From positions 238,564 to 302,563 of the forward strand of contig JBAZNP010000001.1 of NCBI GenBank assembly GCA_041649155.1: a stretch of 64,000 bases of DNA, in the 5' to 3' direction. Position numbers and translations under genes: made by a program. Under the pieces are notes generated by a model. The model saw nothing but the letters and a program-made list of their open reading frames with translations, did no database searches and was not told the origin of the DNA. This DNA comes from Patescibacteria group bacterium (lineage in GTDB: Bacteria > Patescibacteriota > UBA1384 > XYA2-FULL-43-10 > 1-14-0-10-43-13). This document shows positions 6,956 through 60,054 of the stretch, piece after piece (the stretch's first letter is position 1; the number at the start of each line of letters is the position of its first letter).

Positions 6956-7032
6956 TTAAGAATTTTGAATTATGAATTATGAAATAGCAGCTCTACCTAT
7001 TAGCCATGATTCTTGATTCTAGATTCATGATT
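6956..7032. repeat. Family C palindromic element (GAATCATGAAT...AGAATCAAGAATCATGG core)
   Basis: The reverse complement closely matches 33466..33556 (agaatcatgaatNtagaatcaagaatcatgg). Both have flanking inverted arms (gaatcatgaat / attcataattc). Confidence 0.75.
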
Positions 7033-8130
7033 CTATAAAAGCTTCAGCTGTTCGTCTTTCTGCTTCTGCTCGGATGCTTCCTTAGTTTTTGGCGGCTCGG
7101 ATTTTTCAATTCCAAATCTTTTCAAAAGCGAATGAAACCCAAGTTCTAAAAATAACTCTTTCACTTTCTCTTTATCGTATTCTCCCCATTTGGCGTCATT
7201 GAGATCGAAATCAATCGGAACTTCCTTGTAAATTGTAGCCAGACTTTGCGACAAAAATGCCTGTTCCTTATATTGTATCAAAAGCTGCAAGATACGTGGT
7301 TTTATGTTTAATTTTTTGGCAGCCTCAACCAATTTATCATTTTCCATTTCACTGTTGTCATCCCGAGCGTAGTCGAGGGATCTTTTATTGGAAGATTTCT
7401 CCGCCCTCAGACAAGGCTGAGGAGTCGAAATGACAATATTTTTTTCAATTTTTTCATACAAATTTTTAAGCGTGTCAAATTGCTGGAGCAATTTAGTGGC
7501 AGTAACATTTCCGATATTCGGCACCCCTGGAATGTTGTCTGATGGATCACCAGCCAGTGCTTTTAGGTCAATAAAATCTTCCGGATCAAGACCATATTCA
7601 TCTTTAATAACTTTTCGATCTACCACCGCCATTTGAGACAGTCCTTTTCGAAGACTGTAAACAAAAATATTGCCATCTATCAACTGATAAATATCTTTAT
7701 CACCCGAAACAATATAAACTTCCAAGCCTTCATTCGGAATATGCTGGCATTTTGAATTATGTTCATGGCAGTTTTTAACTATTGTGCCAATACAATCATC
7801 AGCCTCATAACCTTCTTTTTCGTATATTGGAATTTCAAAAGCAGATAGCAATTCCTTTACCCTTGGCATTTGGTCATATAATTCCTGATCGGCTTTTACT
7901 CTTGTTGCCTTATAAGCCGCATATTGCTCGGTCCGAAAAGTTGCTTTTGAGACGTCAAAAGAAGCTGCTACATAATCCGGATGCAGGTCTTCCAGCGTTT
8001 TAATTAAAGTGGTTGTAAAGCCATATACAGCATTGGTCTGCTCACCCTTTCGGGTGGACATGCTTTTGGGTAACGCATGATAGGCACGATGTATCACCGC
8101 GTTAGAATCAATTAAGACAAGCTTTTTCAT
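7033..8130 (-). CDS. polA: DNA polymerase I 5'-3' exonuclease (FEN-like) domain as a stand-alone gene
   Basis: 365 aa. Starts MKKLVLIDSNAVIHRAYHAL...YGFT; acidic metal-binding clusters and helix-hairpin-helix GDPSDNIPGVPNIG match the 5' nuclease domain. Lys/Glu-rich C-terminal tail. Confidence 0.85.
   Translation of the reverse strand: MKKLVLIDSNAVIHRAYHALPKSMSTRKGEQTNAVYGFTTTLIKTLEDLHPDYVAASFDVSKATFRTEQYAAYKATRVKADQELYDQMPRVKELLSAFEIPIYEKEGYEADDCIGTIVKNCHEHNSKCQHIPNEGLEVYIVSGDKDIYQLIDGNIFVYSLRKGLSQMAVVDRKVIKDEYGLDPEDFIDLKALAGDPSDNIPGVPNIGNVTATKLLQQFDTLKNLYEKIEKNIVISTPQPCLRAEKSSNKRSLDYARDDNSEMENDKLVEAAKKLNIKPRILQLLIQYKEQAFLSQSLATIYKEVPIDFDLNDAKWGEYDKEKVKELFLELGFHSLLKRFGIEKSEPPKTKEASEQKQKDEQLKLL
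7355..7436. repeat. Family A palindromic element copy inside the polA 5'-nuclease CDS, reading frame kept
   Basis: Same TTGTCATCCCGAGC ... TCGAAATGACAA termini as 2105..2207. Translated on the minus strand it contributes about 27-30 extra residues (NIVISTPQPCLRAEKSSNKRSLDYARDDNS) between conserved 5'-nuclease blocks. Confidence 0.8.
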
Positions 8131-8195
8131 AGCTAAATCTTATCGCAAATACTGCTCGAATGAAAGAGATAATTTACTTACAACTGATTTACTGA

Positions 8196-8891
8196 CTACT
8201 TACCACTCTTTCTAAATGCTTTTATGACTTGCAAAATTATCCAACAAAAAGCAAAGGTGACCACGAGCCAACGGGCTTTGATAATGCCTTCGATAATTCC
8301 CGAACCAAAAAAGCAAAATGCTCCCCAGAATGTGCACCATGCCAGTATGGCAAATATGGAAGTTATCAAAAATTTTCTAAATGGCATTTTCAAAATGCCG
8401 TAGGCCGTAGAAGTAAAAGCTCCAATATTTGGATGAAAGTATGAAAGCCAGATCCATCTGTCACCATGTTTTTCTATTTTTGCTTTACTATTGTCCAAAG
8501 CGTCGCCAAGGCCGAATTTAACAAATATTTTAAACCAGCCATGCTTGCCAATGAAATAATTTATTATAAATCCAATCAGCATTGCGGCACCGGTTACCAA
8601 AACGACTGAGAAAATGTTGAGAGTTCCCTGTCTGCTAAAAGCTGCAGCTAATAAAACAATCGATGAACCAGGGAAATATAGGCAAATAACCGGAATGGAT
8701 TCAATAAGGGTTGAGAAAAAGAGAACTGGATAGCCATATTTCTCAAAATATACTTTCATCACACCAATCAATTCTTCATTAGAAGGAATATGAAATATTT
8801 TGAAAACTGCAATGAAAGAGATCAAAAGGACCAACAAGAGAAGAGGAAAGGCCAGTTTTTTGCGAGTTTTTTTATCCAGAGCCATAATCAT
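8196..8891 (-). CDS. DedA/VTT-family membrane protein
   Basis: Multi-TM protein with the DedA-type region (LESIPVICLYFPGSSIVLLAAAF...GAFTSTAYGILKMP). The likely start is an internal ATG at 8891 (MIMALDKK) preceded by GAGGA; the first 42 codons of the longer track ORF are probably not translated. Confidence 0.65.
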   Translation of the reverse strand: MIMALDKKTRKKLAFPLLLLVLLISFIAVFKIFHIPSNEELIGVMKVYFEKYGYPVLFFSTLIESIPVICLYFPGSSIVLLAAAFSRQGTLNIFSVVLVTGAAMLIGFIINYFIGKHGWFKIFVKFGLGDALDNSKAKIEKHGDRWIWLSYFHPNIGAFTSTAYGILKMPFRKFLITSIFAILAWCTFWGAFCFFGSGIIEGIIKARWLVVTFAFCWIILQVIKAFRKSGK

Positions 8892-8973
8892 TCCTCTGTA
8901 ATTTTTAAAAAAAAAGATCTGGGCGCACATGAAAGTGCTGTACGCCCAGAAAAGTCGCCACCCCGATGAAACG

Positions 8974-9222
8974 TTACGCCGCTGCCAAAGACGGTTCTGA
9001 GTTAAGATAATTGGCAATTAATTGCTCAATTCCTAGAAAAGTAGGATTGTTCCATAGATCGTCTGGAACAGAGCACCTAATCCACTCTTTATTTTCATCT
9101 CTACCGGCGATGATCTTGCCGCGTTCCTCGGTTTCAATAGGCATCAAGTTCTCACAGTCAAGTTGATCGCCAACTTGTCGGACAATGTCTCTCAGCATAT
9201 CTAAATTAACCATTTTCCCCAC
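8974..9222 (-). CDS. Hypothetical small protein
   Basis: 82 aa, no recognisable motif. Local GC is somewhat above the neighbours. Confidence 0.3.
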   Translation of the reverse strand: MGKMVNLDMLRDIVRQVGDQLDCENLMPIETEERGKIIAGRDENKEWIRCSVPDDLWNNPTFLGIEQLIANYLNSEPSLAAA

Positions 9223-9288
9223 CTAGTACAGAAATTAGTTCTAATTTATTTATAACATAGTATTTCAAATATCAACAAATATTATTTA

Positions 9289-9318
9289 GGAGTCTTCGGT
9301 CTAAACCGAAGACTCCTT
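9289..9318 (-). terminator. Stem-loop terminator overlapping the stop of the 9301..9621 gene
   Basis: Perfect hairpin GGAGTCTTCGG-tctaaa-CCGAAGACTCC with T-rich flanks on both strands. Confidence 0.5.
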
Positions 9319-9621
9319 TGTTTCCCCCTCAGATGATCGCTGCGCATCATACATTTTTCTCAATATACCCTGTTCAATGCTCTCTCTAAGAGACACGCTC
9401 GACTTAATCATCTCGTGCACCTTTTCAAGAATTAGCATGAAACCACAAAAAACCATAACAAGTAATACGAGAAAAAATAATGTATTGGCACTACTCCCTG
9501 CCAAAATCGATAAAGAGATAGCAGTAATGATTGTTTTGCCTATATCTAATAGGAAAAATAATGCCACTGCTATGGGAAGTACCGTAGTTATTACAGATAT
9601 CATTATCAGCCCCCTTAACAC
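9301..9621 (-). CDS. Hypothetical small membrane protein
   Basis: 106 aa, three predicted TM helices, charged C-terminus. Confidence 0.35.
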   Translation of the reverse strand: MLRGLIMISVITTVLPIAVALFFLLDIGKTIITAISLSILAGSSANTLFFLVLLVMVFCGFMLILEKVHEMIKSSVSLRESIEQGILRKMYDAQRSSEGETKESSV

Positions 9622-9800
9622 ATTTGATACTAGTGTATCTGTATCATAATTTAATATAAAAAAACAAGCTAAATCGTTTGACTTATTTTCTTTGACTGCT
9701 ATATTTTAAAGCACTATCAAAAAAAAGGCGGCCAGATGATTACAAAACTCTCTAAAAAAGACTTTTCAACTTTACCCGAACTAAAATAGCTATTCTCATA

Positions 9801-9870
9801 TTGTCATTCCAGACTTGATCTGGAATCTATATAAATAGTAACTGGATCCTGAATCAAGTTCAGGATGACA
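9801..9870. repeat. Family A-like variant element in the yhhQ leader (TTGTCATTCC ... GGATGACA termini, two internal hairpins)
   Basis: tgtcattccagacttgatctggaat and atcctgaatcaagttcaggat hairpins are bracketed by TGTCAT / ATGACA ends. It sits between a TTGACT-N16-TATATT promoter-like site near 9690 and the yhhQ start codon. Confidence 0.6.
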
Positions 9871-9883
9871 CGGAAGGATTATT

Positions 9884-10555
9884 ATGTTTGGAAAAATTCA
9901 AAAGTTCGATTTGTTAGTCTCAATATTTATTTTTTGCACCATTGTCTCAGAACTGATGGGAGCAAAAACTTTCCCGTTGGCAACCATTGGCTCTTTTCAT
10001 TTAAATGCCAGTGTAGCAATCTTTGTTATTCCGGTTCTTTTTGCTGTTGACGACATTATCACTGAAGTATTCGGCAAGGAAAGAGCTAGAAGTGTTATTC
10101 GCTCAAGTCTGGTTGTGATTGTTCTCCTTTCTCTCTTCTCTCTTTTGGCGACACATCTTGCGCCTTCAACCCGATTTGCACCATCCGAAAGTGCATACGA
10201 TCAGATTTTTCTGATTTCAATACGTATGTCTGTCGCAAGCCTAATTGCCTTTGGATTTGCAGAGCTTTTAGATGTTTATATTTTCTCGACAATAAGACAA
10301 AAACTCGGCAAAAAGAATCTTTGGCTCAGAACCAACGCTTCCAACTTCATAGCACAGTTCATGGACACTTCAATCTTCATATTTATCGCCTTTTATGCTT
10401 TAAATAAACCGTTTGGCGACAATTTTAGCTTTTTATTTGGTCTAATATTGCCCTACTGGCTCTTAAAATGTTTCATGTCCATAATCGAAACACCGTTTGT
10501 TTATTTGGGTGTCGGCTGGCTGAAAAAAGAACGGTTGTCAGTTGTAAGTGAATAA
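9884..10555 (+). CDS. yhhQ: Queuosine-precursor transporter YhhQ (DUF165 / VUT family)
   Basis: 223 aa, 6 TM helices, with the conserved FAVDDIITEVFG and YALNKPFG motifs of the YhhQ/COG1738 family. Confidence 0.7.
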   Translation: MFGKIQKFDLLVSIFIFCTIVSELMGAKTFPLATIGSFHLNASVAIFVIPVLFAVDDIITEVFGKERARSVIRSSLVVIVLLSLFSLLATHLAPSTRFAPSESAYDQIFLISIRMSVASLIAFGFAELLDVYIFSTIRQKLGKKNLWLRTNASNFIAQFMDTSIFIFIAFYALNKPFGDNFSFLFGLILPYWLLKCFMSIIETPFVYLGVGWLKKERLSVVSE

Positions 10556-10571
10556 GTTGTAAGTTTAAATT

Positions 10572-11321
10572 GTGAAAATAACCTCCATAAAAACAAATAA
10601 GATAGTTCCCGCACAATCGGATATTTTTTCTGTGCTTGATAAATATTTGCCGGATCTGGAAGATGGTTCCATTCTGGCAATTACTTCAAAAGTAGTTTCA
10701 ATTTGCGAAAGCAATGTTGTTAAAGTTGGAGAGGAAGGAAAAGAAGAACTCATCAAAAATGAAGCCGATTTTTATCTGCCTCCGACTAGTAATAAGTATA
10801 AATATTCCTTAACGATTAAAAATAATATTTTGCTGCCGGCCAGCGGAGTCGACGAATCAAATGGCAACGGTTATCACATTCTCTGGCCCAAAGATCCGCA
10901 AAAGAGTGCAAATAAGATAAGGGAATATTTGATAAAGAGGTTTGGATTAAAAAAAGTCGGAGTAATAATCACCGATAGCAAAACCATGCCTCTTCGTTGG
11001 GGTACAACCGGAGTCTGCATCGCGCACAGCGGCTTTAAAGCGCTCAATGACTACATCGGCAAACCGGATATTTTCGGGGCTAAAATGCAGGTGACTAAAG
11101 CTAATATTATAGATGCCTTGGCTGTGTCGGCAGTTTTAATAATGGGTGAAGGATCCGAACAGACACCAATGGCTGTAATCTCAAATATTCCCTTTGTTAA
11201 GTTTAAAAAAAACAATCCAACAAAAAAAGAGCTCGATGAGCTCAAAATTGATATTGAAGACGATCTTTATGCGCCCATACTAAAGAGCGTTAAATGGCAA
11301 AAAAGAAGAGCCCGCCGTTAG
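10572..11321 (+). CDS. CofE-like gamma-glutamyl ligase (F420-0:gamma-glutamyl ligase family)
   Basis: A block (KKVGVIITDSKTMPLRWGTTGVCIAHSGFKALNDYIGKPDIFGAKMQVTKANIIDALAVSAVLIMGEGSEQTPMAVI) aligns closely with archaeal CofE. Confidence 0.7.
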   Translation: MKITSIKTNKIVPAQSDIFSVLDKYLPDLEDGSILAITSKVVSICESNVVKVGEEGKEELIKNEADFYLPPTSNKYKYSLTIKNNILLPASGVDESNGNGYHILWPKDPQKSANKIREYLIKRFGLKKVGVIITDSKTMPLRWGTTGVCIAHSGFKALNDYIGKPDIFGAKMQVTKANIIDALAVSAVLIMGEGSEQTPMAVISNIPFVKFKKNNPTKKELDELKIDIEDDLYAPILKSVKWQKRRARR

Positions 11322-11339
11322 GCGAGCCCAATATGTGCT

Positions 11340-11936: not shown

Positions 11937-11980
11937 AGTTTCACCTCCTTTCTCTCACGTGAGTGATGAAACTTGAGGAC

Positions 11981-13478: not shown

Positions 13479-13516
13479 CTGTATCTTAAAATATTGTAGA
13501 TTGTTTTAATTGGAAT

Positions 13517-22982: not shown

Positions 22983-23027
22983 AACCTCCGAAATAAACGT
23001 AACCTGGTAAATAGGTCTATTTTGTTA

Positions 23028-23049
23028 CGCTTAGCGTAGCGTTTTTTTA
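23028..23049 (+). terminator. Rho-independent terminator after the 22257..22982 gene
   Basis: Hairpin ACGCT-tagcgt-AGCGT followed by TTTTTTT. Confidence 0.5.
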
Positions 23050-23274
23050 ATTGAAAACACTTCAAGTCGCGGAGGTCCTGTCAGCTGGATTGCATTGCGA
23101 CTCAAAATAAGTTTGCAGGAGAACTGGCCCCATACGCAAAACCACACGGATACCTCATTCTCAGGCAGTCAGTAGTAAGTATTTAATCTTAATAACTTAA
23201 ATACCTACTGCCTAGAAAAGGAAACGGCTGGAAGGCGGAGGGAGGGTCTAATAGTAGGAATCTGGAGGTAATAA

Positions 23275-23454
23275 ATGAGTCAACAAATCGTCAAAAAGAC
23301 AAAGCAAATCAGAATCAGCACAGAGCTGCACAAGCTTTTGAAAGTCGAAGCGGCAGAAGCTGGTAAATCAATCAAAACCGTCCTGGAGGAGAAGCTGGAC
23401 TTTGTACCCCCTACCCCCACTTGCGAAGCAAGCGAAGAGGGTTCAGATGAGTAA
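23275..23454 (+). CDS. Ribbon-helix-helix (CopG/Arc-like) DNA-binding protein, 59 aa, not in ORF track
   Basis: MSQQIVKKTKQIRISTELHKLLKVEAAEAGKSIKTVLEEKL... has the beta-strand / helix / helix pattern of RHH regulators. Its stop overlaps the next ORF's start (ATGA). Confidence 0.55.
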   Translation: MSQQIVKKTKQIRISTELHKLLKVEAAEAGKSIKTVLEEKLDFVPPTPTCEASEEGSDE

Positions 23455-24404: not shown

Positions 24405-24422
24405 GGAATTAAGAGTTTAGCA

Positions 24423-24602
24423 ATGAAGCGAGTAATGCCAATTAAAACCGAGTTCAAACTACTGGAAAACGACGAAACAAAGAGTCGTGTTCAGTTGGCA
24501 TATAATCGCATCTTTACCATTGCTAATCAGAATCTTATGAAGCAAGAAATGGCAAAAAGGCAAGCAAAAAAGAAAGGAGGTATTGACAGTAATGTACAGT
24601 AA
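24423..24602 (+). CDS. Small hypothetical protein, 59 aa, not in ORF track
   Basis: MKRVMPIKTEFKLLENDETKSRVQLAYNRIFTIANQNLMKQEMAKRQAKKKGGIDSNVQ. Position and size fit a phage-type small regulator. Confidence 0.3.
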   Translation: MKRVMPIKTEFKLLENDETKSRVQLAYNRIFTIANQNLMKQEMAKRQAKKKGGIDSNVQ

Positions 24603-24639
24603 AGTACAATAAGAGTACATAAACAAAGGAGAGCTGATT

Positions 24640-24813
24640 ATGGAAAAACAAGAAAATGAGTTCCTAACCGTTGAAGAAGTAGCTGAAAAATATCGAGTCG
24701 CTGTTGCTACAATCTACCGAATGGTTAGAAAAGGAGAAATCCCAGCCATCAAGTTTGGCAAAGTGTGGAGAATTAAAAAGAACGAACTGGAAGAAAAATT
24801 AAGCAATAAATAA
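24640..24813 (+). CDS. xis: Excisionase / AlpA-family helix-turn-helix protein (57 aa), not in ORF track
   Basis: MEKQENEFLTVEEVAEKYRVAVATIYRMVRKGEIPAIKFGKVWRIKKNELEEKL matches the excisionase-family HTH_17 pattern (LT..E.A..L.VS..TIYR....G..P..K.G..WR.....L). It lies directly upstream of the serine recombinase. Confidence 0.7.
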   Translation: MEKQENEFLTVEEVAEKYRVAVATIYRMVRKGEIPAIKFGKVWRIKKNELEEKLSNK

Positions 24814-24868
24814 AACAAAGCCAGAGTCCTAACGACGAATTAGAAGCACTCTGGCTAAGGAGGAGTCA

Positions 24869-32465: not shown

Positions 32466-32584
32466 ATGTCATTTCGACTCCTCAGCCTTGTCTGAGGGTG
32501 GACCTGCCTGCCGGCAGGCAGGGAAATCTTAAAATAGATTATTATTTCTATTAGAAGATCCCTCCACGTTGGTCGGGATGACAC
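32466..32584. repeat. Family A palindromic element (reverse orientation) carrying the 20-bp palindrome CCTGCCTGCCGGCAGGCAGG
   Basis: Its reverse complement aligns almost base-for-base with 46450..46568, including TIRs TGTCATCCCGACC ... TCGAAATGACA. Confidence 0.85.
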
Positions 32585-32742
32585 AGGGTAAGTGAGCAGT
32601 TGCGATCGTTTATGTTGACTCAATCACAATTTTCTGATATTATCTAACAAAATTAATATTTAACTTTTTCCCCGATGAACATCGGGGAGCTGGAGTCCGA
32701 ACTAATTTGGACACTAAACACCAGCGCCAAGAAAGGAAATCA

Positions 32743-33468
32743 ATGAGAGAATACGAACTTACGTATTTAATTTCTGATAATGTGCCTGAATCAGATTTAA
32801 ATAAGGTTACCGGTAAAGTCGGTGGCTATGTTACTAGTCTTAACGGAAAAATTTTAAAAGAAGAAATCTGGGGTAGAAGAAAACTAGCTTATCCTATTAA
32901 AAAACAGGATTTTGCTACTTACGTAACTTTGAATTTCAGCTTGCCTGCTGAAAAAGCAAACGAATTTGAACACAACATTTTTATGTCTTCAAAAATAATT
33001 CGTCACCTAATGATTGTTCAAGATTACGGATCAGAAGAGTTAACTTTGACCAAAGAGGATGTTGCTGAAACAGAAGAAATTACCAAAGTAATTGGCGGTG
33101 AAAAATCATTTGAGGCCGTTATCGGAGAAACAGAGGAAAGCAAAGATTTAATGGCAGTTCGCGGGGACGAAGTAGAGACAGAAGAACCTAAAAAAGAAAC
33201 CAAGAAAGAAAAAACTCCAGAAAAAACAGAACTTGAAGAGGAAGTTGAAGACGCCGCATCCACCGAAGGTGGAGCAGGCGCCCCTGCTTCCACTGAAAGT
33301 GGAATGCGGGGAGAACCTAAAAAAGCTGCAAAAACAACGAAGAAAGCTGAAACTCCTAAAAAACCAGCCAAGACAGCTAAAAAAGCAGAGAAAAAGCCAG
33401 AAGATGAAGCAGACAGACTGTCTAAACTAGACAAAGAACTGGACGATATTCTTGGCGATGACCTGTAA
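32743..33468 (+). CDS. rpsF: 30S ribosomal protein S6 with a long low-complexity Lys/Glu-rich C-terminal extension
   Basis: MREYELTYLISDNV...IWGRRKLAYPIKK is a canonical S6 N-terminal domain. Start at 32743, not the upstream ATG of the track ORF. It is followed by ssb and rpsR as in the conserved operon. Confidence 0.85.
   Translation: MREYELTYLISDNVPESDLNKVTGKVGGYVTSLNGKILKEEIWGRRKLAYPIKKQDFATYVTLNFSLPAEKANEFEHNIFMSSKIIRHLMIVQDYGSEELTLTKEDVAETEEITKVIGGEKSFEAVIGETEESKDLMAVRGDEVETEEPKKETKKEKTPEKTELEEEVEDAASTEGGAGAPASTESGMRGEPKKAAKTTKKAETPKKPAKTAKKAEKKPEDEADRLSKLDKELDDILGDDL
33250..33311. repeat. Family E palindromic element inside the rpsF coding sequence
   Basis: gacgccgcatccaccgaaggtggagcaggcgcccctgcttcc...ggaatgcgggg matches 40199..40255 in pyrG. 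The first hairpin, tccacc/ggtgga here versus tccgc/gcgga in pyrG, is kept by compensatory changes. It encodes DAASTEGGAGAPAS..GMRG. Confidence 0.8.
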
Positions 33469-33556
33469 AACCAGAATCATGAATATAGAATCAAGAATCA
33501 TGGGATTGATTAAAGTGCTATAATATTCTTAATTCATAATTCTAATCAAAAGGAGC
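33466..33556. repeat. Family C palindromic element, second copy
   Basis: agaatcatgaatatagaatcaagaatcatgg ... attcataattc matches the reverse complement of 6956..7032. Confidence 0.75.
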
Positions 33557-34035: not shown

Positions 34036-34150
34036 TTATTAATAATTTTAAAAAGAATATTCAAGATACAAGAAACAATAAACAAATAAATCACAATATT
34101 CAATAATCAAATTTCAAATATACTTGTATTTTGTTACTTGGAACTTGGTT
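34036..34150. repeat. Family D palindromic element (CAAGATACAAGAAACAA ... TTGTATCTTG arms)
   Basis: Shares acaagaaacaat..caaa..aa...caatattcaataa and inverted arms with 43575..43716. Confidence 0.7.
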
Positions 34151-34170
34151 ATTGCGACTGAAAGGAGCCC

Positions 34171-34395: not shown

Positions 34396-34528
34396 TAAAT
34401 AATTACAAAATCCTAATTCCAAATTACAAACAAAATTTCAAATGTCTAATGTCAAAGTTTTGAATTTTTTAATTTAATATTTGGGATTTGATTAGAAATT
34501 AGTCATTAGAAATTAGGAATTTATTACT

Positions 34529-35086
34529 ATGTTATCAATCACCAACCTAAAAAACGGCACAAAGATCACTCTCACCGGAGAACCTTATGTGGTTTTGTCT
34601 TATTACCATTCCAAAATGGGACGAGGCGGAGCCGTGGTTAAAACAAAATTGAAAAATTTGAAAACCGGCGGAGTAATAGATAAAACTTTTCAGGGAGCAG
34701 ATAAAGTTGAGGAGGCAAATTTAACTAAAAGAAACGCAACTTATCTTTATTCTGATGAAAATAGTTCATACTTCATGGACACAGAAAGTTATGATCAGTT
34801 TGAAATCTCTCTGGAAAAAGTCGGCGATGATAAAAAGTATTTAGTTGAAAACTCCAGTGTTGATCTCCTCTACTTCAACAATGAACCTATAAACATAGAG
34901 CTACCGATTAAAATGACTTTCAAAGTAGTTAGTGCTCCTCCTGCAGTTAAGGGAAATTCTGCCGGCTCAGTAACCAAAAAAGTAACTATCGAAACCGGAA
35001 CTCAAGTGGATGCTCCACTTTTTATCAAAGAAAATGATAAAATAGTAGTAGACACAAGAAGCGGCTCTTACGTTGAACGTGCATAA
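34529..35086 (+). CDS. efp: Elongation factor P
   Basis: 185 aa. KPGKG-equivalent loop (SKMGRGGAVVKTKLKNL) and three OB domains. Confidence 0.9.
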   Translation: MLSITNLKNGTKITLTGEPYVVLSYYHSKMGRGGAVVKTKLKNLKTGGVIDKTFQGADKVEEANLTKRNATYLYSDENSSYFMDTESYDQFEISLEKVGDDKKYLVENSSVDLLYFNNEPINIELPIKMTFKVVSAPPAVKGNSAGSVTKKVTIETGTQVDAPLFIKENDKIVVDTRSGSYVERA

Positions 35087-35696: not shown

Positions 35697-35700
35697 ATAG

Positions 35701-35803
35701 CAGAATACAGATATCAGATAACAGTTATATGAAAACAATATGTAAAAAATCCCGCCACTATGCGGGATTTTTTACTATCAAATTTCTGTTATCTGTATTG
35801 CTG
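35701..35803. repeat. Family F inverted repeat (CAGAATACAGATATCAGATAACAG / CTGTTATCTGTATTGCTG) around a bidirectional terminator
   Basis: The arms flank AAAAAATCCCGCCACTATGCGGGATTTTTT (35745..35774), a perfect hairpin with A-run and T-run between the convergent PRC-barrel and groEL genes. The motif cagaatacagatatcag recurs inside the GT2 gene at 59383..59414. Confidence 0.7.
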
Positions 35804-35822
35804 TCAACTGTTAGCTATTTTA

Positions 35823-37846: not shown

Positions 37847-37866
37847 ATCTCGTACACCTGCCTGCC
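37847..37866. repeat. 20-bp perfect palindrome CCTGCCTGCCGGCAGGCAGG in the groES 5' leader
   Basis: Identical to the cores inside the family A copies at 32503..32522 and 46512..46531. It is nested in a larger inverted repeat (cacagatc ... gatctgcacag) between the groES promoter and the start codon. Confidence 0.8.
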
Positions 37867-37925
37867 GGCAGGCAGGCTGATCTGCACAGATAATTTTATA
37901 TAATTTTTAAACTCAATTTTACTGA

Positions 37926-37955
37926 TATATAAGCGATTGTAAAGTATACTTTACT
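37926..37955 (-). promoter_or_regulatory. Sigma70-like promoter candidate for groES-groEL (TTGACA-N18-TACAAT on minus strand)
   Basis: The minus strand reads ttgacaaaaaagtaaagtatactttacaat about 100 nt upstream of the groES ATG. No CIRCE (TTAGCACTC-N9-GAGTGCTAA) is present. Confidence 0.4.
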
Positions 37956-38174
37956 TTTTTGTCAAGAGTCGATACTACATCGGCTCGCAGACCCCCGACA
38001 AAGCGACACCATGATGCATGGACGTAGACCATGAGAATGGAGAAGCGAAGTGGGGTCACTACCGATAACAAGGGATAAAACAAAAAAAAGAGGATTTCCC
38101 TCTCAACGCTCCCCCTAAATTTAATATGTTCCCGTGATCATCAGTAGTTATCAGTGTAATAGATCAGCGTAGTT

Positions 38175-38217
38175 AAAAAGGTGGCGGTAGTGCAAGGGGG
38201 GCACACTACCACCAACC
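38175..38217 (-). terminator. Rho-independent terminator of the nucleotidyltransferase gene
   Basis: GC-rich hairpin GGTTGGTGGTAGTGTGCCCCCCTTGCACTACCGCCACC followed by TTTTT on the minus strand. Confidence 0.65.
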
Positions 38218-38245
38218 TCAATATAGCGCAACTTAAGCTCAAAAG

Positions 38246-38938: not shown

Positions 38939-39181
38939 CGCCTCAAATTTCTAAGCTCTAATTTTTAATTTCAAATAATTTAGACTTTTATTCGTTATTT
39001 GTAATTTGGATTTTGTCATTTGATAAGTTGTCCCCAACTTTTTTAATTGTAACAGAAAATATGGGTGTGCTATCATATAGTTAAAATAAAATATCGTTAA
39101 AAAAAACTCCAACTGAATAAAAAACCTAGGAGTTTTTTAAATTGTTCTAATTATAATCATAAGTTCTATTTCGGAGGAAAA

Positions 39182-40885
39182 ATGAGTTCAAAATACATCT
39201 TTGTTGTTGGCGGTGTAATGTCTTCTGTCGGTAAAGGAATCGCTTCTGCATCAATTGGAACGATCTTAAAAAGTAAGGGCTATAAAGTTACAGCAATTAA
39301 AGCCGATCCTTATATAAATGTTGATGCCGGCACCATGAACCCGACTGAACACGGAGAAGTTTTTGTAACAAAAGACGGCGATGAATGCGATCAGGACATG
39401 GGAAATTATGAAAGATTTCTAGACGAAAGCCTGACCAAGATAAATTACATGACAACCGGCCGAATCTACCAGTCTGTTATTAACAAAGAAAGAAATCTTG
39501 ATTATAAAGGCAAATGCGTTGAAGTTGTGCCTCACATTCCGGAAGAAATAATTAATCGGATTAAAACAGCGAGCAAGAATGCCAAAGCTGATATCACTAT
39601 TATTGAAATTGGCGGGACAATCGGTGAATATCAAAATCTCCTTTTCCTTGAGGCAGCCAGAATGATGAAACAGGAAAATCCTGAAGATGTAATATTCATT
39701 CTAGTTTCATATCTACCAATCCCCTCAAAAGTCGGGGAGATGAAAACAAAACCAACCCAAATGGCTTCACGCGAATTAAATTCTTGCGGAATTCAGACAG
39801 ATTTTATCTTCTGTCGTTCCGAGCGCCCGATTGACCAAAAACGAAGAGAAAAGCTGGCAACATTCTGCGGAATTAAACCGGAAAATGCCATTTCTGCTCC
39901 AGACGAAGATTCAATCTACGACATCCCTGTAAATTTTGAGAATGAAAATCTGGGCGAAAAGATACTAAAACAATTAAGGTTAGAACCCAAACAAACCGAT
40001 CTGGTTGGCTGGCGCAAAATGGTGAAAGAGGCTAAAGAAGCAAAAGGAAGCGTAAAAATAGGTATTGTCGGTAAATATTTTGACACAGGCGATTTTGTTC
40101 TCGCTGATTCATATATTTCAGTTATTGAAGCCGTAAAACATGCTAGTTGGAAAGAAGGTTTGAAACCAGAACTAGTTTGGCTTTCTTCTGACAAATATGA
40201 TGCCGCATCCGCTAAAAGCGGAGCAGGCACCCCTGCTTCCGTAGGAATGCGGGGGAAAAGTAAGAAAAATTTAGAAGAATTAAAACAGTATGACGGTATC
40301 ATAATTCCAGGGGGATTTGGTTCTCGTGGAATTGAAGGGAAAATCGCTGTCGCAGGTTTTTGTCGAGAAAACATGATCCCGTATTTCGGTCTATGTTACG
40401 GCATGCAAATTGCCACTATTGATTTTGCCAGAAATGTCTGCGGTTTAAAAAAAGCCAATTCTCAAGAACTTGACCCCAAAACTCCTCATCCTGTTATTCA
40501 TATAATGTCCGATCAGAAGAAGAAATTGGAAGAAAAAGATTTTGGTGGATCAATGAGATTGGGATCTTATGATTGTAAGCTAGTTAAAAACACCCTGTCA
40601 TATAGGGCTTATTCCAATTTAAAAAAATCTATATCAGGAGAGCCGCCTTTAATTTCTGAGCGCCATCGACATCGTTATGAATTTAACAATGAGTATAAAG
40701 ACCTAATTACTAAAAAAGGCCTGAAAATAGCAGGTCTTAATCCGGAGAGAAAATTGGTTGAAATAATTGAAATCCCAAATCACCCGTTCTTTGTCGGAGT
40801 ACAATTCCATCCGGAATTCCAGTCACGACCAGGACGACCACATCCACTGTTTTTAGAGTTCATTAGAGCAGCCAGAAAGAAATAA
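39182..40885 (+). CDS. pyrG: CTP synthase
   Basis: N-terminal synthetase domain (VVGGVMSSVGKGIASAS), C-terminal glutamine amidotransferase with GLCYGMQ and HPEF. Confidence 0.95.
   Translation: MSSKYIFVVGGVMSSVGKGIASASIGTILKSKGYKVTAIKADPYINVDAGTMNPTEHGEVFVTKDGDECDQDMGNYERFLDESLTKINYMTTGRIYQSVINKERNLDYKGKCVEVVPHIPEEIINRIKTASKNAKADITIIEIGGTIGEYQNLLFLEAARMMKQENPEDVIFILVSYLPIPSKVGEMKTKPTQMASRELNSCGIQTDFIFCRSERPIDQKRREKLATFCGIKPENAISAPDEDSIYDIPVNFENENLGEKILKQLRLEPKQTDLVGWRKMVKEAKEAKGSVKIGIVGKYFDTGDFVLADSYISVIEAVKHASWKEGLKPELVWLSSDKYDAASAKSGAGTPASVGMRGKSKKNLEELKQYDGIIIPGGFGSRGIEGKIAVAGFCRENMIPYFGLCYGMQIATIDFARNVCGLKKANSQELDPKTPHPVIHIMSDQKKKLEEKDFGGSMRLGSYDCKLVKNTLSYRAYSNLKKSISGEPPLISERHRHRYEFNNEYKDLITKKGLKIAGLNPERKLVEIIEIPNHPFFVGVQFHPEFQSRPGRPHPLFLEFIRAARKK
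40199..40255. repeat. Family E palindromic element inside the pyrG coding sequence
   Basis: gatgccgcatccgctaaaagcggagcaggcacccctgcttccgtaggaatgcggggg adds about 20 residues (AASAKSGAGTPASVGMRGKS) in the linker before the GATase domain, compared with E. coli PyrG. It is homologous to 33250..33311. Confidence 0.8.
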
Positions 40886-43536: not shown

Positions 43537-43574
43537 ATTTTATAGTATAGCAGATAACAGTAGACAGTGCACAG

Positions 43575-43716
43575 AATAATAAGAAAACAAGAGACAAGAA
43601 ACAATGACCAAACAATATTCAATAAACAATTACCAATACCTCAAATATTTGAATGCTTTCTAAGTTGGATATTTGGAATTTGTTTGTATCTTGTAACTTG
43701 TATCTTGTTTCTTCAA
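43575..43716. repeat. Family D palindromic element, second copy
   Basis: aagaaaacaagagacaagaaacaatgaccaaacaatattcaataaacaa ... ttgtatcttgtaacttgtatcttgtttcttc with inverted arms; homologous to 34036..34150. Confidence 0.7.
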
Positions 43717-46290: not shown

Positions 46291-46449
46291 TACCCTATAT
46301 TCCCCCTCAAAACCAGCATTACGCCATATCGACGTTTGATTCAAAATAACAAAAATAATATTAAAAAATGATTAAGGAAAGATTAAATATTTATTAAGGC
46401 GTTCGTTTTTTTATCTGTAAATTAAAAGTAGTTACTTACCTACCCCTTG

Positions 46450-46568
46450 TGTCATCCCGACCAGAGTGGAGGGATCTTCTGATAGTAATCAGAATTTATT
46501 TTTAAGATTTCCCTGCCTGCCGGCAGGCAGGTCCGTCCTCAGACAAGGCTGAGGAGTCGAAATGACAA
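46450..46568. repeat. Family A palindromic element carrying the 20-bp palindrome CCTGCCTGCCGGCAGGCAGG
   Basis: TIRs TGTCATCCCGACC ... TCGAAATGACAA. Near-identical to the reverse complement of 32466..32584. Confidence 0.85.
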
Positions 46569-46618: not shown

Positions 46619-46656
46619 AATTCAGTGTCAAATATCTAAGATCAAAGTTCTCAGTT

Positions 46657-46893
46657 CTAAATATGGAGTATTTCGTTTAAAATATCTTTTGCTTTTGACT
46701 CTTTTCTATTTCTTTCAGCAGAGTCAGTAGCAAATGTAACAACTACAACCTCACCCTCTTTGGTGTCCCTCGGCAATAAGCTTACTGGCACCACACATTT
46801 TTTTTCATCTGAAATTAAAACTGCGTTGTCACCTTCAAAGCGATCCAAAGTCATTTCCGTTGAAATAATATCTTTTTCTTGTTTCTTACTCAT
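46657..46893 (-). CDS. DUF3006-like small protein
   Basis: 78 aa. LDRFEGDNAVLISDEKKCVVPVSLLPRDTKEGEVVVV matches the DUF3006 pattern (IDRIEGD.AVL......I.VP...LP....EGDV). Confidence 0.5.
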   Translation of the reverse strand: MSKKQEKDIISTEMTLDRFEGDNAVLISDEKKCVVPVSLLPRDTKEGEVVVVTFATDSAERNRKESKAKDILNEILHI

Positions 46894-54177: not shown

Positions 54178-54666
54178 ATGAACATAAAAGATAAAAAAAT
54201 AGTTTTTGTTATTTTTCTTATTTTGTTAGCTATTGCAGTTATTTCAGTCTTAGTTATTTATTTTCCAATGAAAAATAAGGTGAAGGCTCCAATCAGTTCA
54301 GGCGATAGCACACTGGAATCTCAATCAAACTCTAATTCAAGTACTCAATTTGATGCTAAAAGTGAAGTAAATGATCCTAACCAAAATATTAGCAAGCCCG
54401 CTTCATCAAATAGTGCGGAAAATTATTACAATGAAGGACTAAAGGATATTGCAAATAAAGATTATAGCGAAGCAATATTTAATTTTTCCAAAGCGATCGA
54501 ACTCGACCCCAAACAGGAAAACTACTACAGCAAAAAAGCTGAAGCACAAGTCTTAGCTGGAGATAAAAACGGAGCCATAGCAACAGTTCAAACAGGACTA
54601 AAAGCATTACCGGACGATCAATTACTTTTGAATAAATTGGATATAATTAATGCAACGGTAAAATGA
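54178..54666 (+). CDS. TPR-repeat protein with N-terminal membrane anchor
   Basis: TM helix, then about three TPR-like repeats (YNEGLKDIANKDYSEAIFNFSKAIELDP...). Confidence 0.5.
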   Translation: MNIKDKKIVFVIFLILLAIAVISVLVIYFPMKNKVKAPISSGDSTLESQSNSNSSTQFDAKSEVNDPNQNISKPASSNSAENYYNEGLKDIANKDYSEAIFNFSKAIELDPKQENYYSKKAEAQVLAGDKNGAIATVQTGLKALPDDQLLLNKLDIINATVK

Positions 54667-56276
54667 TGATAAAAAAAACAATTTCAATTTTATTAATGGT
54701 CGGACTGTTTGCATCTTTTTTGCCTAACTCGTTAACAAATAAGGCAAATGCGTCTGATCGGACAGTCAGTGAATTTATGGCTGGTCAATACTATAACAGC
54801 GTTATTCCTGACTATGATTTTGTAGACATCAATTCTCTTGGTGTGTCTGATATACAAAGAGTTCTAGTGGATAATAACTCTTTTCTTAAAGACTATCATG
54901 ATAACTCAGCTACAGGTGCAGGAAGAAGCGCAGCTCAAATAATTTATGATGCGTCACATGCAAGCTACGATGCCGCGGCCGGTAGCATCAATGGCATTAC
55001 AATCAACACTTCCACCGGTACAATCAGCCCCAAAGTTCTTCTTGTTATGCTTCAGAAAGAACAAAGTTTGGTATCGATGCAGGCGCAAAATGATACAGCT
55101 TTAAACAGAGCCATGGGATATCAATGTCCCGATGGTGGCGGCTGTGATCCAGCCTATGCTGGTTTTGCCATGCAAGTCGGTTGGGCCGCCTGGCAATTGA
55201 GATATAACTATGAATATGCTGCTCGCGGTATTAAAAATCCAGGCTTCACCATCCACTATGTTAAAAACGAGGGCACAACACTAAGCGATTACACAGGAGC
55301 TTATGATGTAATAATGCTAAACAACGCAACTGCCGCACTTTACAGTTATACACCTCATGTATTCGACAGTGCTTATAATTTCTGGAAAATTTTCTACCGC
55401 TTGTTTACAGCAGCTACGCTACCAAACGATACCCCTCCGCCGTACGATGGCAATGGAACACAGATCTTTTATAGAACTCATGTGCAAAATATCGGTTGGA
55501 CGGACTGGAAAGGAAACGGGGAGACTTCGGGAACTACTGGTCTGGGACTAAGGGTTGAAGCTATTCAGATGGCACTGGTTGGAAATCCAAGTCTTGGCTT
55601 CGAGTTTCGCGCACATATACAAAATAGAGGGTGGTCTGAATGGATGAGTAATAGCGGCATTATTGGCACAACTGGTTTGGATTTACGAATTGAGGCAATA
55701 GAAGCTAGAATTACTAATTCTAACGATTATAATGTTTACTATCAAACCCATGTTGAAGAACATGGCTGGATGGAGGCAACACACGATGCCAACATGGCAG
55801 GAACAACTGGACAAAACCTAAGAATTGAGGCAATAAAAATGGAGGTTAATAGAAGATACACCGTTAATCCCCTTGCATTAGAACTCAATGCTAGAGCCCA
55901 TGTACAAAATGTTGGGTGGACCAGCTTGGTTGGCCAAAATAAGTTACTCGGAACGTCTGGAAGAGGTTTAAGACTGGAAGCTATTCAATTATCATTGGCT
56001 AACGCTCCAGCGGGTACATCTATTTTATACAGAGTCCATGTACAGAATATAGGCTGGATGGATTGGGCGAGAGATGGTCAAACAGCAGGAACAGAAGGCC
56101 AATCCTTGAGAATTGAGGCAATTGAAATCAGAGTAGAAGGACCTCAAACTATCCATGTATTTTATGATGGACATGTACAAAATATTGGTTGGATGAACCA
56201 ATATTATGACGGCAATGCTATTGGAACAGCTGGACAAGGCCTAAGGTTGGAAGCATTGGTACTAAATTTCCGATAA
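54663..56276 (+). CDS. Secreted protein with six C-terminal ChW (clostridial hydrophobic-W) repeats
   Basis: Signal peptide, an unassigned N-terminal domain of about 230 aa, then six repeats of about 50 aa, each like YRTHVQNIGWTDW..G...GTTG..LRLEAI.I. This matches the ChW repeat consensus with its invariant GW. Confidence 0.6.
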   Translation: MMIKKTISILLMVGLFASFLPNSLTNKANASDRTVSEFMAGQYYNSVIPDYDFVDINSLGVSDIQRVLVDNNSFLKDYHDNSATGAGRSAAQIIYDASHASYDAAAGSINGITINTSTGTISPKVLLVMLQKEQSLVSMQAQNDTALNRAMGYQCPDGGGCDPAYAGFAMQVGWAAWQLRYNYEYAARGIKNPGFTIHYVKNEGTTLSDYTGAYDVIMLNNATAALYSYTPHVFDSAYNFWKIFYRLFTAATLPNDTPPPYDGNGTQIFYRTHVQNIGWTDWKGNGETSGTTGLGLRVEAIQMALVGNPSLGFEFRAHIQNRGWSEWMSNSGIIGTTGLDLRIEAIEARITNSNDYNVYYQTHVEEHGWMEATHDANMAGTTGQNLRIEAIKMEVNRRYTVNPLALELNARAHVQNVGWTSLVGQNKLLGTSGRGLRLEAIQLSLANAPAGTSILYRVHVQNIGWMDWARDGQTAGTEGQSLRIEAIEIRVEGPQTIHVFYDGHVQNIGWMNQYYDGNAIGTAGQGLRLEALVLNFR

Positions 56277-57834: not shown

Positions 57835-59278
57835 CAAAATCGCGTCAAATACGCTTGTTCAAATTATTGGGCGAATGCTTGTAATGGTAATGGCTTTAAT
57901 TTCGACAAAACTAATTACCAACTACCTTGGACCAGAAGGAACGGGTTTTTACACCACCATAGTAACCTATTTCAATTTTATAATTGTAATCGCTGATTTT
58001 GGCTTATTTTCTGTTGCAGTTAGAGAAGTATCAAAAGACTATTCTAATTATAAAAAGATTCTTGGAAATATTTTTTATATTCGACTTATAAGTGCATTGA
58101 TTGCAACAATCATAGCAGTAATTATTATATTTTTTACAAAGTATCCAACTGAGATTAAAAATGGCGTCTTAATTGCTTCTTTGTTTCCAATATTTAACCT
58201 TACTGGAAGTGTCTATGATATGTTCTTGCAGGTTAAACTAGAAATGAAGAAAGTCGCCATTGCAGAAATAATATCTAAAATAATCGCTCTAGCTGGCGTG
58301 ATAATAGCAGTTGCCTTTAATCTGGGAATTTATATTATTATTACCACCGTATCACTAGCTGCTGTGAGCAATTTTCTAATTAAGATGTTGATTTCAAAAA
58401 AACAACTACCCCTAAATTTTCGTTATGACAAGTCAATTCTTCCACATTTTATTAAAATGTCAGTGCCGCTTGGAATAGTTTTTATCGTTAATAATATTTA
58501 TTTCAAGGTTGACTCTCTAATGCTTTTTTATTACAAAGGAGCTGCTGATGTCGGTATTTATGCTGTTGCCTATCGAGTACTAGAGACGACTCTTTTCGCT
58601 GGGTCCTATTTGACCAGCTCTCTGAAACCGCTTCTTTCTGTTTCAGTTGAAAATGACAAAGAAAAGACGACTAGAGCCTTAAAACAAGGAACTAATTTTT
58701 TGTTTTTTATGGCGCTCACTATTTCAATTATTTGCATTACTTTTCCTAAAGAAATTATACTGTTTCTTAGTAATGAAGAATTTATAAAAGGCGCCAATGT
58801 GACAATAATCCTAGGATTTGCCACAATTTTTATTTACCTGGGCGGCATGTTCGGAGAAATAATGATCGCCAAGGACATGAGAAGAACAATGCTTAAAATT
58901 TCTGGTTTTATCTTGCTGTTCAACGTGGCCTTAAATATGTATCTGATACCGCGTTATGGTTTTATTGGTGCTGCATATGCTACTTTAATTTCCGAAGTTG
59001 TCCTTCTTGCTATTAGCTGGAACGTGGCGAAAAAAGCAACTGAGATTTCTCTTGACTGGGCCAGGATCACCAAACTAGTATCAATCGGACTGTTTTCAGT
59101 TTTATTTGGATATTTTTTGAAAAGATTTGATATTTATTTCCTAATAAATATGTTATTTACGGTCATTACATATGTAGCGCTATCATACTTCTTGGATGCT
59201 ATACCAAAATCTGTAGTAAATAATTATCTAATATCTCTGAAAAGCAAATGGACAAAAAAGACCTCTCCATCATTATAG
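57818..59278 (+). CDS. Polysaccharide flippase (Wzx-like, MOP superfamily)
   Basis: 486 aa, about 12-14 TM helices, typical Wzx N-terminal region (LVQIIGRMLVMVMALISTKLIT). Confidence 0.65.
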   Translation: MSKESNKIASNTLVQIIGRMLVMVMALISTKLITNYLGPEGTGFYTTIVTYFNFIIVIADFGLFSVAVREVSKDYSNYKKILGNIFYIRLISALIATIIAVIIIFFTKYPTEIKNGVLIASLFPIFNLTGSVYDMFLQVKLEMKKVAIAEIISKIIALAGVIIAVAFNLGIYIIITTVSLAAVSNFLIKMLISKKQLPLNFRYDKSILPHFIKMSVPLGIVFIVNNIYFKVDSLMLFYYKGAADVGIYAVAYRVLETTLFAGSYLTSSLKPLLSVSVENDKEKTTRALKQGTNFLFFMALTISIICITFPKEIILFLSNEEFIKGANVTIILGFATIFIYLGGMFGEIMIAKDMRRTMLKISGFILLFNVALNMYLIPRYGFIGAAYATLISEVVLLAISWNVAKKATEISLDWARITKLVSIGLFSVLFGYFLKRFDIYFLINMLFTVITYVALSYFLDAIPKSVVNNYLISLKSKWTKKTSPSL

Positions 59279-60054
59279 TTCATCATAAATCAAAAAATAT
59301 TACTCTTGATTGCATTAAAAGCATCAGGGAACAGATATTTGGAATTTCTCATGAAGTAATCGTTGTTGATAACAGCGAAAACACAGAATACAGAATACAG
59401 AATACAGATATCAGCAAAATACTAGGGCCTTCTACCTTCTGCCTTCTACCTTCTGCCAACAAAGGCTTTGGCGCTGGCAATAATCTGGGCGCGAGCAAGG
59501 CAAACGGAGAATATTTATTGCTCCTGAATCCCGACACTATAGTATTTGATAATTCGATTGAGAAAATGCTTTCCTTTATTAAAAAACACGATGAAATTGG
59601 GGCATTGACGTGTCTATTGGGACCGGATAAAAAAACTCTACAGAAGAATTTCTTTGGTAGATTTCAATCTCTTCTTTCCGTCACGTTTCGACATTATAAT
59701 TATCAAAAAGTTGACCTTTCCAGGGAATTTTTTTATACCGATATAGTTACCGGCGCAGCCCTAATGATTAAAAAAGAAATTTTTGAAAAAGTCGGCAGAT
59801 TTGATGAGAGATTTTTCATGTATTTAGAAGACGACGACCTTTGCAAACGACTGGTTGATGCTGGATATAAAAATGCAGTTTTGAATACTGCAAAGATTAT
59901 TCACCTCGAAGGCAAAAGCATTTCAAAAAATGCCGAGCGCAAAAAGATTTATTATCAAAGCCAAAATCTCTATTGGCAAAAGCACAATGGATTGCTACCA
60001 ACCATTATAATGAGAGTTATTCGTTGGCCATACAAGTTCATACGCACTAAATAA
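59248..60054 (+). CDS. Glycosyltransferase family 2 (GT-A)
   Basis: LSIIIVHH...VIVVDN, then (after an inserted segment) GFGAGNNLG and LLLNPDTIVFD, which is the DXD-region architecture of GT2. Confidence 0.8.
   Translation: MDKKDLSIIIVHHKSKNITLDCIKSIREQIFGISHEVIVVDNSENTEYRIQNTDISKILGPSTFCLLPSANKGFGAGNNLGASKANGEYLLLLNPDTIVFDNSIEKMLSFIKKHDEIGALTCLLGPDKKTLQKNFFGRFQSLLSVTFRHYNYQKVDLSREFFYTDIVTGAALMIKKEIFEKVGRFDERFFMYLEDDDLCKRLVDAGYKNAVLNTAKIIHLEGKSISKNAERKKIYYQSQNLYWQKHNGLLPTIIMRVIRWPYKFIRTK
59383..59457. repeat. Tandem repeats inside the GT2 CDS: (CAGAATA)x3 followed by a 14-nt unit (CCTTCTACCTTCTG) x2
   Basis: acagaatacagaatacagaatacagatatcag shares cagaatacagatatcag with the family F element at 35701. 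It is inserted between the VIVVDN and GFGAGNN motifs, where most GT2 enzymes have only a few residues. Confidence 0.75.

Follow-up and report, generated by a model that had tools for sequence, protein, structure and literature searches.

Tandem arrays of 7-nt units have been described in several bacterial lineages. Heptameric simple sequence repeats (SSRs) are the most abundant class of long SSRs in many bacteria and have been credited to polymerase slippage (Mrazek 2007, as reported in PMC4679880 and PMC4692102), and heptamers of the short tandemly repeated repetitive (STRR) type are known from Calothrix and Nostoc (Mazel 1990, as cited in PMC4692102 and PMC4679880). The GGGAATC arrays of Xanthomonas include inverted pairs (PMC4692102). 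A regulatory role has been proposed for the TAACTGA arrays of Beggiatoaceae, some of which lie inside open reading frames (ORFs) (PMC4679880), and also, without being settled, for Nostoc heptamers upstream of recF and recO (bioRxiv 10.1101/2022.06.06.494920). In Rickettsia, palindromic elements (Rickettsia palindromic elements, RPE) are found in frame within genes (reviewed in PMC10969869). Here, we describe short palindromic repeats with arms built from 7-nt units, designated families C, D and F, in a 64-kb stretch of DNA (contig JBAZNP010000001.1, hereafter the window) from the ~0.8 Mb genome of a member of the Patescibacteria, together with related arrays inside a gene for a family 2 glycosyltransferase (GT2).

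In our judgement, C, D and F probably represent, together with no fewer than five other loci of the window, a single class of dispersed palindromic repeats with heptamer-built arms, which would be spread over the whole clade, prone to turnover, and tolerated rather than required. The many repeat families of the window would then amount to one phenomenon. Heptanucleotide arrays have lacked an explanation since their description in cyanobacteria, and a tiny, highly syntenic clade such as this one allows them to be compared spacer by spacer, including filled and empty sites, replacement of one family by another, and in-frame coding copies.

Palindromes with heptamer-built arms

An earlier note on this DNA, made from the sequence alone, had described C, D and F as separate families of palindromes with inverted arms, located in intergenic spacers. 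The sequences themselves are present where they had been placed, at frequencies far beyond chance, all three are inverted-arm palindromes lying in spacers, and Pfam supports the identity given to the flanking genes (the polA junction, S6, SSB, S18, the P-type ATPase and VanW). It is their separateness that does not hold, as both Tandem Repeats Finder (TRF) and lag autocorrelation reveal a 7-nt period in all three, and they form one class sharing this kind of arm. The elements are imperfect palindromes of 80-180 nt, both arms of which are short tandem arrays of 3-5 units of 7 nt (Table 1). TRF reports ~15 period-7 arrays in the window, at least five loci are additional to C, D and F, and inverted pairs were recognised by inspection at 7 of the 10 array-bearing loci.

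The window, whose G+C content is ~38%, was compared with 19 syntenic relatives (L002-L020), all of them Berkelbacteria-like Patescibacteria retrieved with EF-P (66-88% identity in this protein), some of which are metagenome-assembled genomes labelled Candidatus Berkelbacteria. The gene order S6-SSB-S18-EFP-PRC-GroEL-GroES-NTase-CTPsyn-ATPase-VanW, in which PRC denotes a PRC-barrel protein, NTase a nucleotidyltransferase and CTPsyn the CTP synthase, is kept in these ~19 relatives; in the window, Pfam recognises S6, SSB, S18, EF-P, the PRC-barrel protein, GroEL/ES, CTP synthase, the P-type ATPase and VanW. Arrays were counted by lag autocorrelation at lags 4 to 12 over the window and its relatives (357 kb in total). 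Only lag 7 is enriched, with 56 arrays versus 10 or fewer for any other lag, and 44 of them fall in 51 kb of non-coding DNA versus 12 in 306 kb of coding DNA, which corresponds to 8.6 versus 0.39 arrays per 10 kb (a ~22-fold enrichment). The arrays are common in L002-L020 and rare in other Patescibacteria loci, a sporadic and lineage-specific distribution. They reappear in four Nitrospirota / Dissulfurispiraceae loci that had been fetched by chance (L064, L071, L073 and L076), as G+C-richer inverted pairs (ATAGGTC/ATGGGTT...ACCTATC; AAGGCAA...TTGCCTT; CGTGAAT...ATTCACG), and the same architecture is therefore found in an unrelated phylum.

The two copies of family C share 82% identity over ~90 nt and are oriented alike with respect to the genes that flank them. 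Their arms at 7004-7034 (-) and 33473-33503 (+) match in 30 of 31 nt, with none expected (100 shuffles). The centre of the second copy holds an extended -10-like sequence that, judging from its letters, may act as a promoter element, and a GTGCTATAAT-type motif also occurs in the S6-ssb spacers of three relatives devoid of C arms (L003, L007 and L008).

The two copies of family D, also with inverted arms, show 73% identity over 64 nt (34054-34117 versus 43573-43636). The core of this family, CAAGATACAAGAAACAA, has nine matches in the window at three or fewer mismatches versus 0.56 expected (16-fold over-representation), and eight of the nine lie within D1 or D2. RNAalifold returned no consensus structure for the D-family alignment, because slippage of the heptamers makes this alignment ambiguous, and the family was surveyed with nhmmer in its place. 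The consensus was found in five genomes and at four spacers, with E values of 1e-20 to 1e-26 for copies that were members of the training alignment, and of 1.9e-05 for the L018 copy, which had been left out of the model. D1 is orthologous to the copies of L004, L010 and L018; outside the window, D-type elements are present in these three genomes, with two in L010, and also in L016, and they occupy four different spacers.

In family F, arms at 35697-35741 and 35776-35822 enclose a terminator-like hairpin, which is listed on the minus strand by the terminator scan and, by inspection of its A-run and T-run flanks, is bidirectional. The statement of the earlier note that F flanks a bidirectional terminator is thus sustained by a 14-pair hairpin with T-runs on both strands. 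A 17-mer, CAGAATACAGATATCAG, occurs exactly twice in the window, at 35701 in F and at 59398 in the GT2 gene (none expected). The closest relative, L002, keeps F with the same type of unit and a changed terminator sequence between the arms, and other relatives have plain, armless terminators at this site.

The comparison of orthologous spacers reveals how unstable these elements are. In the 19 relatives, the spacers S6-ssb, ssb-S18, S18-efp, groEL-groES and PRC-groEL mostly hold inverted heptamer arrays, the units of which differ from genome to genome; in the S6-ssb spacer, for instance, the unit is AGAATCA in the window, CATTTAC in L002, TAAGCTA in L005 and ATCCGAA in L016. Four spacers that hold C, D and other types in the window share a single type of unit (ATTTACC/AAATGAA) in L002, and turnover is therefore rapid when set against the divergence of the proteins. 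At these sites, several relatives possess a promoter or terminator with no arms around it, from which it follows that the arms are dispensable.

The polA junction is an example of a site that may be filled or empty. In the window, the 5'-3' exonuclease ORF (7033-8130, minus strand) and the DNA_pol_A ORF (5666-6943, minus strand), which lacks a 3'-5' exonuclease domain, are separated by C1, and the TAG stop codon of the exonuclease ORF falls in the first C1 unit. The split is clade-wide and has the same ends (...QLKLL stop / MWSHL...), and distant Patescibacteria possess fused proteins of 720-790 aa. The junction measures 92 nt in the window (C1), 28 nt of heptamers in L018 and only 3 nt in L008 (TAAattATG), holds (TTTTAAA)n in L087, and accommodates a whole extra gene in L007. 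C1 was also considered as the cause of the split, as an intron or as a bypass element, and these options were rejected because the same split exists in relatives with a 3-nt spacer.

Table 1. Positions of heptamer-built elements and associated features within the window
Feature	Position	Strand	Description
Family C, copy 1 (C1)	6944..7035	-	(AGAATCA/TGAATCT)x4 arm, centre, (TAATTCA)n arm; spacer between polA exonuclease and polymerase ORFs
Array, ACTTACA type	8176..8206		Inverted partner 2.3 kb away at 10534-10573; TRF and repeat search
Array, GTTGTAA type	10534..10573		
Family C, copy 2 (C2)	33469..33556	+	rpsF (S6) to ssb spacer
Extended -10-like sequence	33516..33524	+	TGCTATAAT; centre of C2
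Family D, copy 1 (D1)	34046..34156	+	(CAAGAWA)n...(TTGTWAC/TTGG)n; ssb to rpsR spacer
Heptamer-armed palindrome	34396..34528	+	(AATTACA/AATTCCA)n...(AGAAATT/AGTCATT)n; rpsR to efp spacer
Family F	35697..35822		Terminator flanked by a (CAGAWAW)n arm and its inverted counterpart; spacer of the convergent PRC-barrel gene and groEL
Intrinsic terminator-like hairpin	35742..35775	- (scan)	Core of F; 14 pairs, 6 of them GC
Arrays, ATTTGTA type	38960..39035		Divergent nucleotidyltransferase / CTP synthase spacer
F-like half array	43547..43583		ATAGCAGATAACAGTAGACAGTGCACAG; abuts D2
Family D, copy 2 (D2)	43570..43716	-	VanW to P-type ATPase spacer
Single array, AGTTCTC type	46624..46662		
GT2 glycosyltransferase ORF	59248..60054	+	268 aa, intact
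Coding array, left	59383..59414	+	(ACAGAAT)x3.7 running into CAGATATCAG; encodes TEYRIQNTDIS
Coding array, right	59427..59457	+	CCTTCTA/CCTTCTG x4.3; encodes PSTFCLLPSA, including beta-strand residues 64-68

Coding arrays and other features of the window

The GT2 gene, which belongs to a cluster of polysaccharide genes (flippase, GT1, GT2), holds two arrays for which TRF gives a period of 7 with 3.7 copies (59383-59408) and a period of 14 with 2.2 copies (59427-59457), both at 100%. The earlier note had drawn attention to the recurrence of the F motif beside perfect short tandem repeats in this gene, between the VIVVDN and GFGAGNN motifs, and each of these points is borne out. It had further regarded the segment as an insert, which is not what the comparison reveals: the segment aligns without net length gain to 25 homologues, down to ~51% identity, and AlphaFold2 predicts an ordered fold for residues 46-70 (pLDDT ~88-92), with a helix at 52-56 and a beta-strand at 64-68 (FCLLP).

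Among orthologues at 71-85% identity, the number of units is unchanged where there is no nested insertion. At the DNA level, segment length and unit register are the same in the window and in the orthologues P0002, P0037, P0006 and P0003, none of which has a nested G+C-rich insertion. P0002 has (CAGAATA)3-CAGATATCAG and (CCTTCTA)4, and P0006 has (CAGAATT)3 and (CCTTCTG)4; P0037 has one substitution in the left array and a largely degraded right array, the units of P0003 are degraded, and P0010 contains (AGAATCA)2... In P0004 (from L092) and P0010 (from L093), in-frame G+C-rich palindromes are nested in or next to the arrays, which persist on either side: one orthologue of this pair has a 21-nt palindrome, CCGTGCCTGCCGGCAGGCAGG, in the middle of its CAGAATA array, and the other a 39-nt G+C-rich insert just before its CCTTCT array. 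Further downstream in the gene, P0002, P0004 and P0008 share a 'PPAGG' insertion.

The differences between CAGAATA and CAGAATT and between CCTTCTA and CCTTCTG affect all units together and fall on codon positions 1, 2 and 3 alike, so that the GT2 units undergo concerted evolution at the DNA level, as read from these alignments. At conserved residues, third codon positions are more often identical inside the arrays than elsewhere (94 versus 65%, 87 versus 54% and 80 versus 52%), an excess probably due to every position of the unit being under selection in three frames. The gene offers a clean and well-resolved case of concerted evolution of a non-triplet repeat within a conserved enzyme fold.

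GT2 is not the only gene with such arrays. The CTP synthase of L012 carries, in this relative only, an in-frame heptamer-armed insertion of ~100 nt (L012 13183-13285), which adds ~25-30 residues to a surface loop of the glutamine amidotransferase part and aligns with the intergenic AAATCCT-family elements of the same genome, where this family has three copies. In the polA exonuclease of L008, an in-frame F-type array encodes TRIQNTDNRIQ, the RIQNTD peptide of which is common to GT2. A loop of YchF holds heptamer arrays in L008 and L016 and G+C-rich palindromes in L011 and L012, and the nucleotidyltransferase gene of relatives also has an in-frame heptamer array. In this clade, a coding heptamer array is therefore no mark of a surface-variation gene.

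Several other repeats and non-coding features were observed in the window. G+C-rich palindromic families are found at 2104-2145, 7353-7437, 32467-32588, 37856-37883 and 46445-46567 (TGTCATCCCGAGC..GTCGAGGGATC, TCCGCCCTCAGACAAGGCTGAGGAGTCGAAATGACA, ACCTGCCTGCCGGCAGGCAGG), and the copy at 7353-7437 is an in-frame part of the ORF of the polA 5'-3' exonuclease, to which it contributes the residues ...SSNKRSLDYARDDNSEM... A 42-nt G+C-rich direct repeat with 83% identity, shared by the S6 C-terminal extension (33250-33291) and CTP synthase (40199-40240), could represent a further family of in-frame repeats. At 55527-56263, a direct repeat with a spacing of 135 nt occurs five times inside ORF 54663-56276, whose product has ChW (clostridial hydrophobic W) repeats, an ordinary protein-domain repeat. 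The leader of the CTP synthase gene (pyrG) contains, downstream of an extended -10-like box, a terminator-like hairpin (39075-39145; aaaaaaaactcc...ggagtttttt) that is conserved in the orthologous spacers of L002, L003, L005, L006, L008 and L020, and that is reminiscent of the pyrG leader attenuation of Gram-positive bacteria. There are long non-coding stretches at 22983-23401, 24405-24868 and 37888-38245, with no Rfam match. Of the last one, relatives conserve only the 3' 73 nt, which form a terminator-like hairpin lying downstream of the nucleotidyltransferase gene, and a stretch of ~45 nt upstream of groES that contains a promoter-like site according to the scan. Near 22 kb the sign of the GC skew is reversed, and the genes point away from this place, for which reason it may be a replication origin region. 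No match was obtained over the whole window with Rfam 15 at the gathering score, nor on two long spacers at E of 0.1 or below, and ARAGORN found no tRNA or tmRNA in it.

Possible origin and maintenance of the arrays

A succession of steps can be proposed by which a class of this kind would be generated and kept. As suggested by the literature on bacterial heptameric SSRs, the arrays would arise and be homogenised through replication slippage or misaligned repair, and the complementarity of the arms would be kept either by copying of whole elements or by correction of one arm against the other via template switching. New copies would reach other spacers and loops by some copy or recombination route, and would be tolerated where they leave existing signals unharmed, flanking the -10 box of ssb and the PRC-barrel/groEL terminator rather than replacing them, so that the arms would at most contribute accessory stem length. 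The arrays of GT2 would be an old, fixed and now translated member of the class, in which the 7-nt unit is read in all frames across three units, and both homogenisation and selection on the protein would hold their number and sequence. This combination would explain why the GT2 units change in concert and why their synonymous sites are conserved.

Several points weigh against this account. No transposase was found among the scanned ORFs of the 64-kb window, and neither a motif for terminal cleavage nor an evident target-site duplication was seen in the window and the inspected flanks; at the flanks of C1, C2 and the L012 insertion no duplication is convincing, and the relatives are too diverged for an exact comparison with the empty site. 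Because of this, calling the elements mobile relies on filled and empty sites and on the distribution of the families only. C and D have just two visible copies each, in 64 kb of the genome. Heptamer palindromes that persist in the same spacers, with a mean z of about -2 to -3, are also expected under selection for hairpins. The GT2 arrays may have arisen in situ or may have come by replacement with an element, and for the way in which the 7-nt period came about this account draws on the literature.

The alternative that deserves most attention, even though we regard it as unlikely, is that the elements are selected functional hairpins, as RNA or as DNA cruciforms, involved in insulation, terminator extension, or mRNA processing and stability in highly expressed operons, with the heptamers being incidental. 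Arms are always inverted and their complementarity is kept despite the different units used by each genome, as this explanation would predict. Spacers as a class fold better than shuffles, and the F arms, kept in L002, lengthen the stem of the terminator (-45.7 kcal/mol, z -9.8/-7.8); folding of C is moderate (z -4.5 for C1 antisense), and D2 reaches z -3.8. However, z is strong only where the terminator is included, folding is not significant for D1, the element at 34396 or the GT2 segment, and mismatches are systematic, with 5-6 of 7 positions paired in every unit. Nor is there a consistent strand preference, since the better-folding strand of C is antisense to the flanking genes and, over 53 orthologous spacers, the sense strand is more stable in 23 and the antisense strand in 29, results that led us to reject a strand-specific RNA hairpin as the general rule. 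The many relatives with plain terminators or short armless spacers at the same sites also argue against a required hairpin. Still less credence can be given to a bolder version of the mobile-repeat account, according to which the palindromes would be a distinct, actively mobile class of Berkelbacteria-like Patescibacteria, driven by an enzyme or factor that is peculiar to the clade and recognises single-stranded arms with a 7-nt period. In this version, the palindromes would seed new, translated sequence in essential enzymes (GT2, CTP synthase, YchF and PolA), followed by concerted evolution of the arrays under selection in three frames. If true, it would represent a route of protein innovation in ultra-small genomes.

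It appears improbable that the arrays serve as sites for a trans-acting factor with a ~7-nt footprint (a cold-shock, S1 or CsrA-like RNA binder, or a nucleoid protein) that sets translation or promoter activity. Right arms often end directly before a start codon, and a Shine-Dalgarno sequence is not always evident there (efp at 34529, the polymerase ORF at 6943), the GT2 arrays are conserved at the nucleotide level, and the arrays of Beggiatoaceae and Nostoc (PMC4679880; bioRxiv 10.1101/2022.06.06.494920) provide precedents. Yet the units found within one genome are many and unrelated (AGAATCA, CAAGAWA, CAGAWAW, AGAAATT, ATTTGTA, GTTGTAA...), beyond what one factor could recognise, close relatives have replaced their units wholesale, and arrays occur inside housekeeping ORFs. 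Least probable of all, and by a long way short of being a working explanation, is the proposal of the earlier note that the GT2 arrays are a contingency locus, in which the gain or loss of a single 7-nt unit by strand slippage would throw the gene out of frame and turn a surface glycan on and off. The repeats are indeed perfect, tandem and non-triplet, they lie in a glycosyltransferase of a polysaccharide cluster, and their concerted evolution points to repeat dynamics at the DNA level. Nevertheless, the tracts are short (3.7 and 4.3 units), they persist beside in-frame G+C-rich insertions in two orthologues, and no frameshifted or N-terminally split allele is present among the 120 homologues listed. 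Two short homologues were considered as frameshift alleles and rejected: P0037 (205 aa) is cut at its C-terminus and has its arrays in frame, and P0120 (198 aa), examined as a protein, begins at GFGAGNN and is more distantly related. Different repeat counts, which the earlier note had suggested looking for in other strains or bins, were found neither in assemblies nor in orthologues; the four contigs with the P0002 allele and the assemblies with the window allele are each 100% identical throughout, being clonal assemblies that say nothing on slippage rates, and a variable-gap pattern scan of metagenomes recovered the reference length only, from a single matching contig, which is uninformative on polymorphism. 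What the earlier note had named as speaking against its own proposal is in large part what was observed, namely a protein segment conserved in relatives and an absence of length variation, the latter at the level of clonal assemblies and not of reads. Because unit number is conserved in orthologues at 74-85% identity, OFF alleles are absent from the data and similar arrays occur in the housekeeping genes of relatives (CTP synthase, YchF, polA), phase variation of GT2 is unsupported, and the segment is better described as a conserved part of the protein with a modelled fold. A tempting annotation, that of a surface glycosyltransferase with phase variation in a lineage of uncultured episymbionts, can thus be removed as unsupported.

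Comparison with known repeat systems

The tetranucleotide tracts of phase-variable surface genes in Haemophilus and Neisseria resemble the GT2 arrays in being non-triplet repeats, here inside a glycosyltransferase ORF. The likeness ends there, as the GT2 tract is short, its number of units is kept across species, and it is translated into a conserved structural segment for which no OFF alleles were seen.

[quoted passage not shown] In the 64 kb of the window, C and D each occur twice and F is accompanied by the F-like half array, and filled and empty sites are exemplified by the polA junction and by the CTP synthase insertion. As in RPE, the fold of the protein allows for in-frame insertions in unrelated housekeeping genes; unlike in RPE, no conserved encoded peptide defines the families. 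Arms with a 7-nt period also set them apart from RPE, REP and MITE, the arms of which are unique sequence, and neither the cognate transposase nor the terminal inverted repeat with target-site duplication of MITE and REP was found in the window and inspected flanks.

There is also a close resemblance to the long SSR and STRR heptamers. Both are made of tandem 7-nt units, strongly intergenic, with several unit sequences per genome and a sporadic distribution across phyla; the length and sequence of an array change from one relative to another at orthologous spacers, occasional copies lie in ORFs, and inverted pairs occur as in Xanthomonas. Despite these similarities, the arrays described here consist of 3-5 A+T-rich units, versus tens of units in classic STRR, and they form the arms of discrete palindromes of 80-180 nt, in multi-copy families common to several genomes. 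A keyword search of the literature returned no report of such repeats in Patescibacteria. The kind of repeat is thus already known, and what is particular to this new member of it, in Patescibacteria, is that heptamer arrays make up the arms of discrete families of palindromes.

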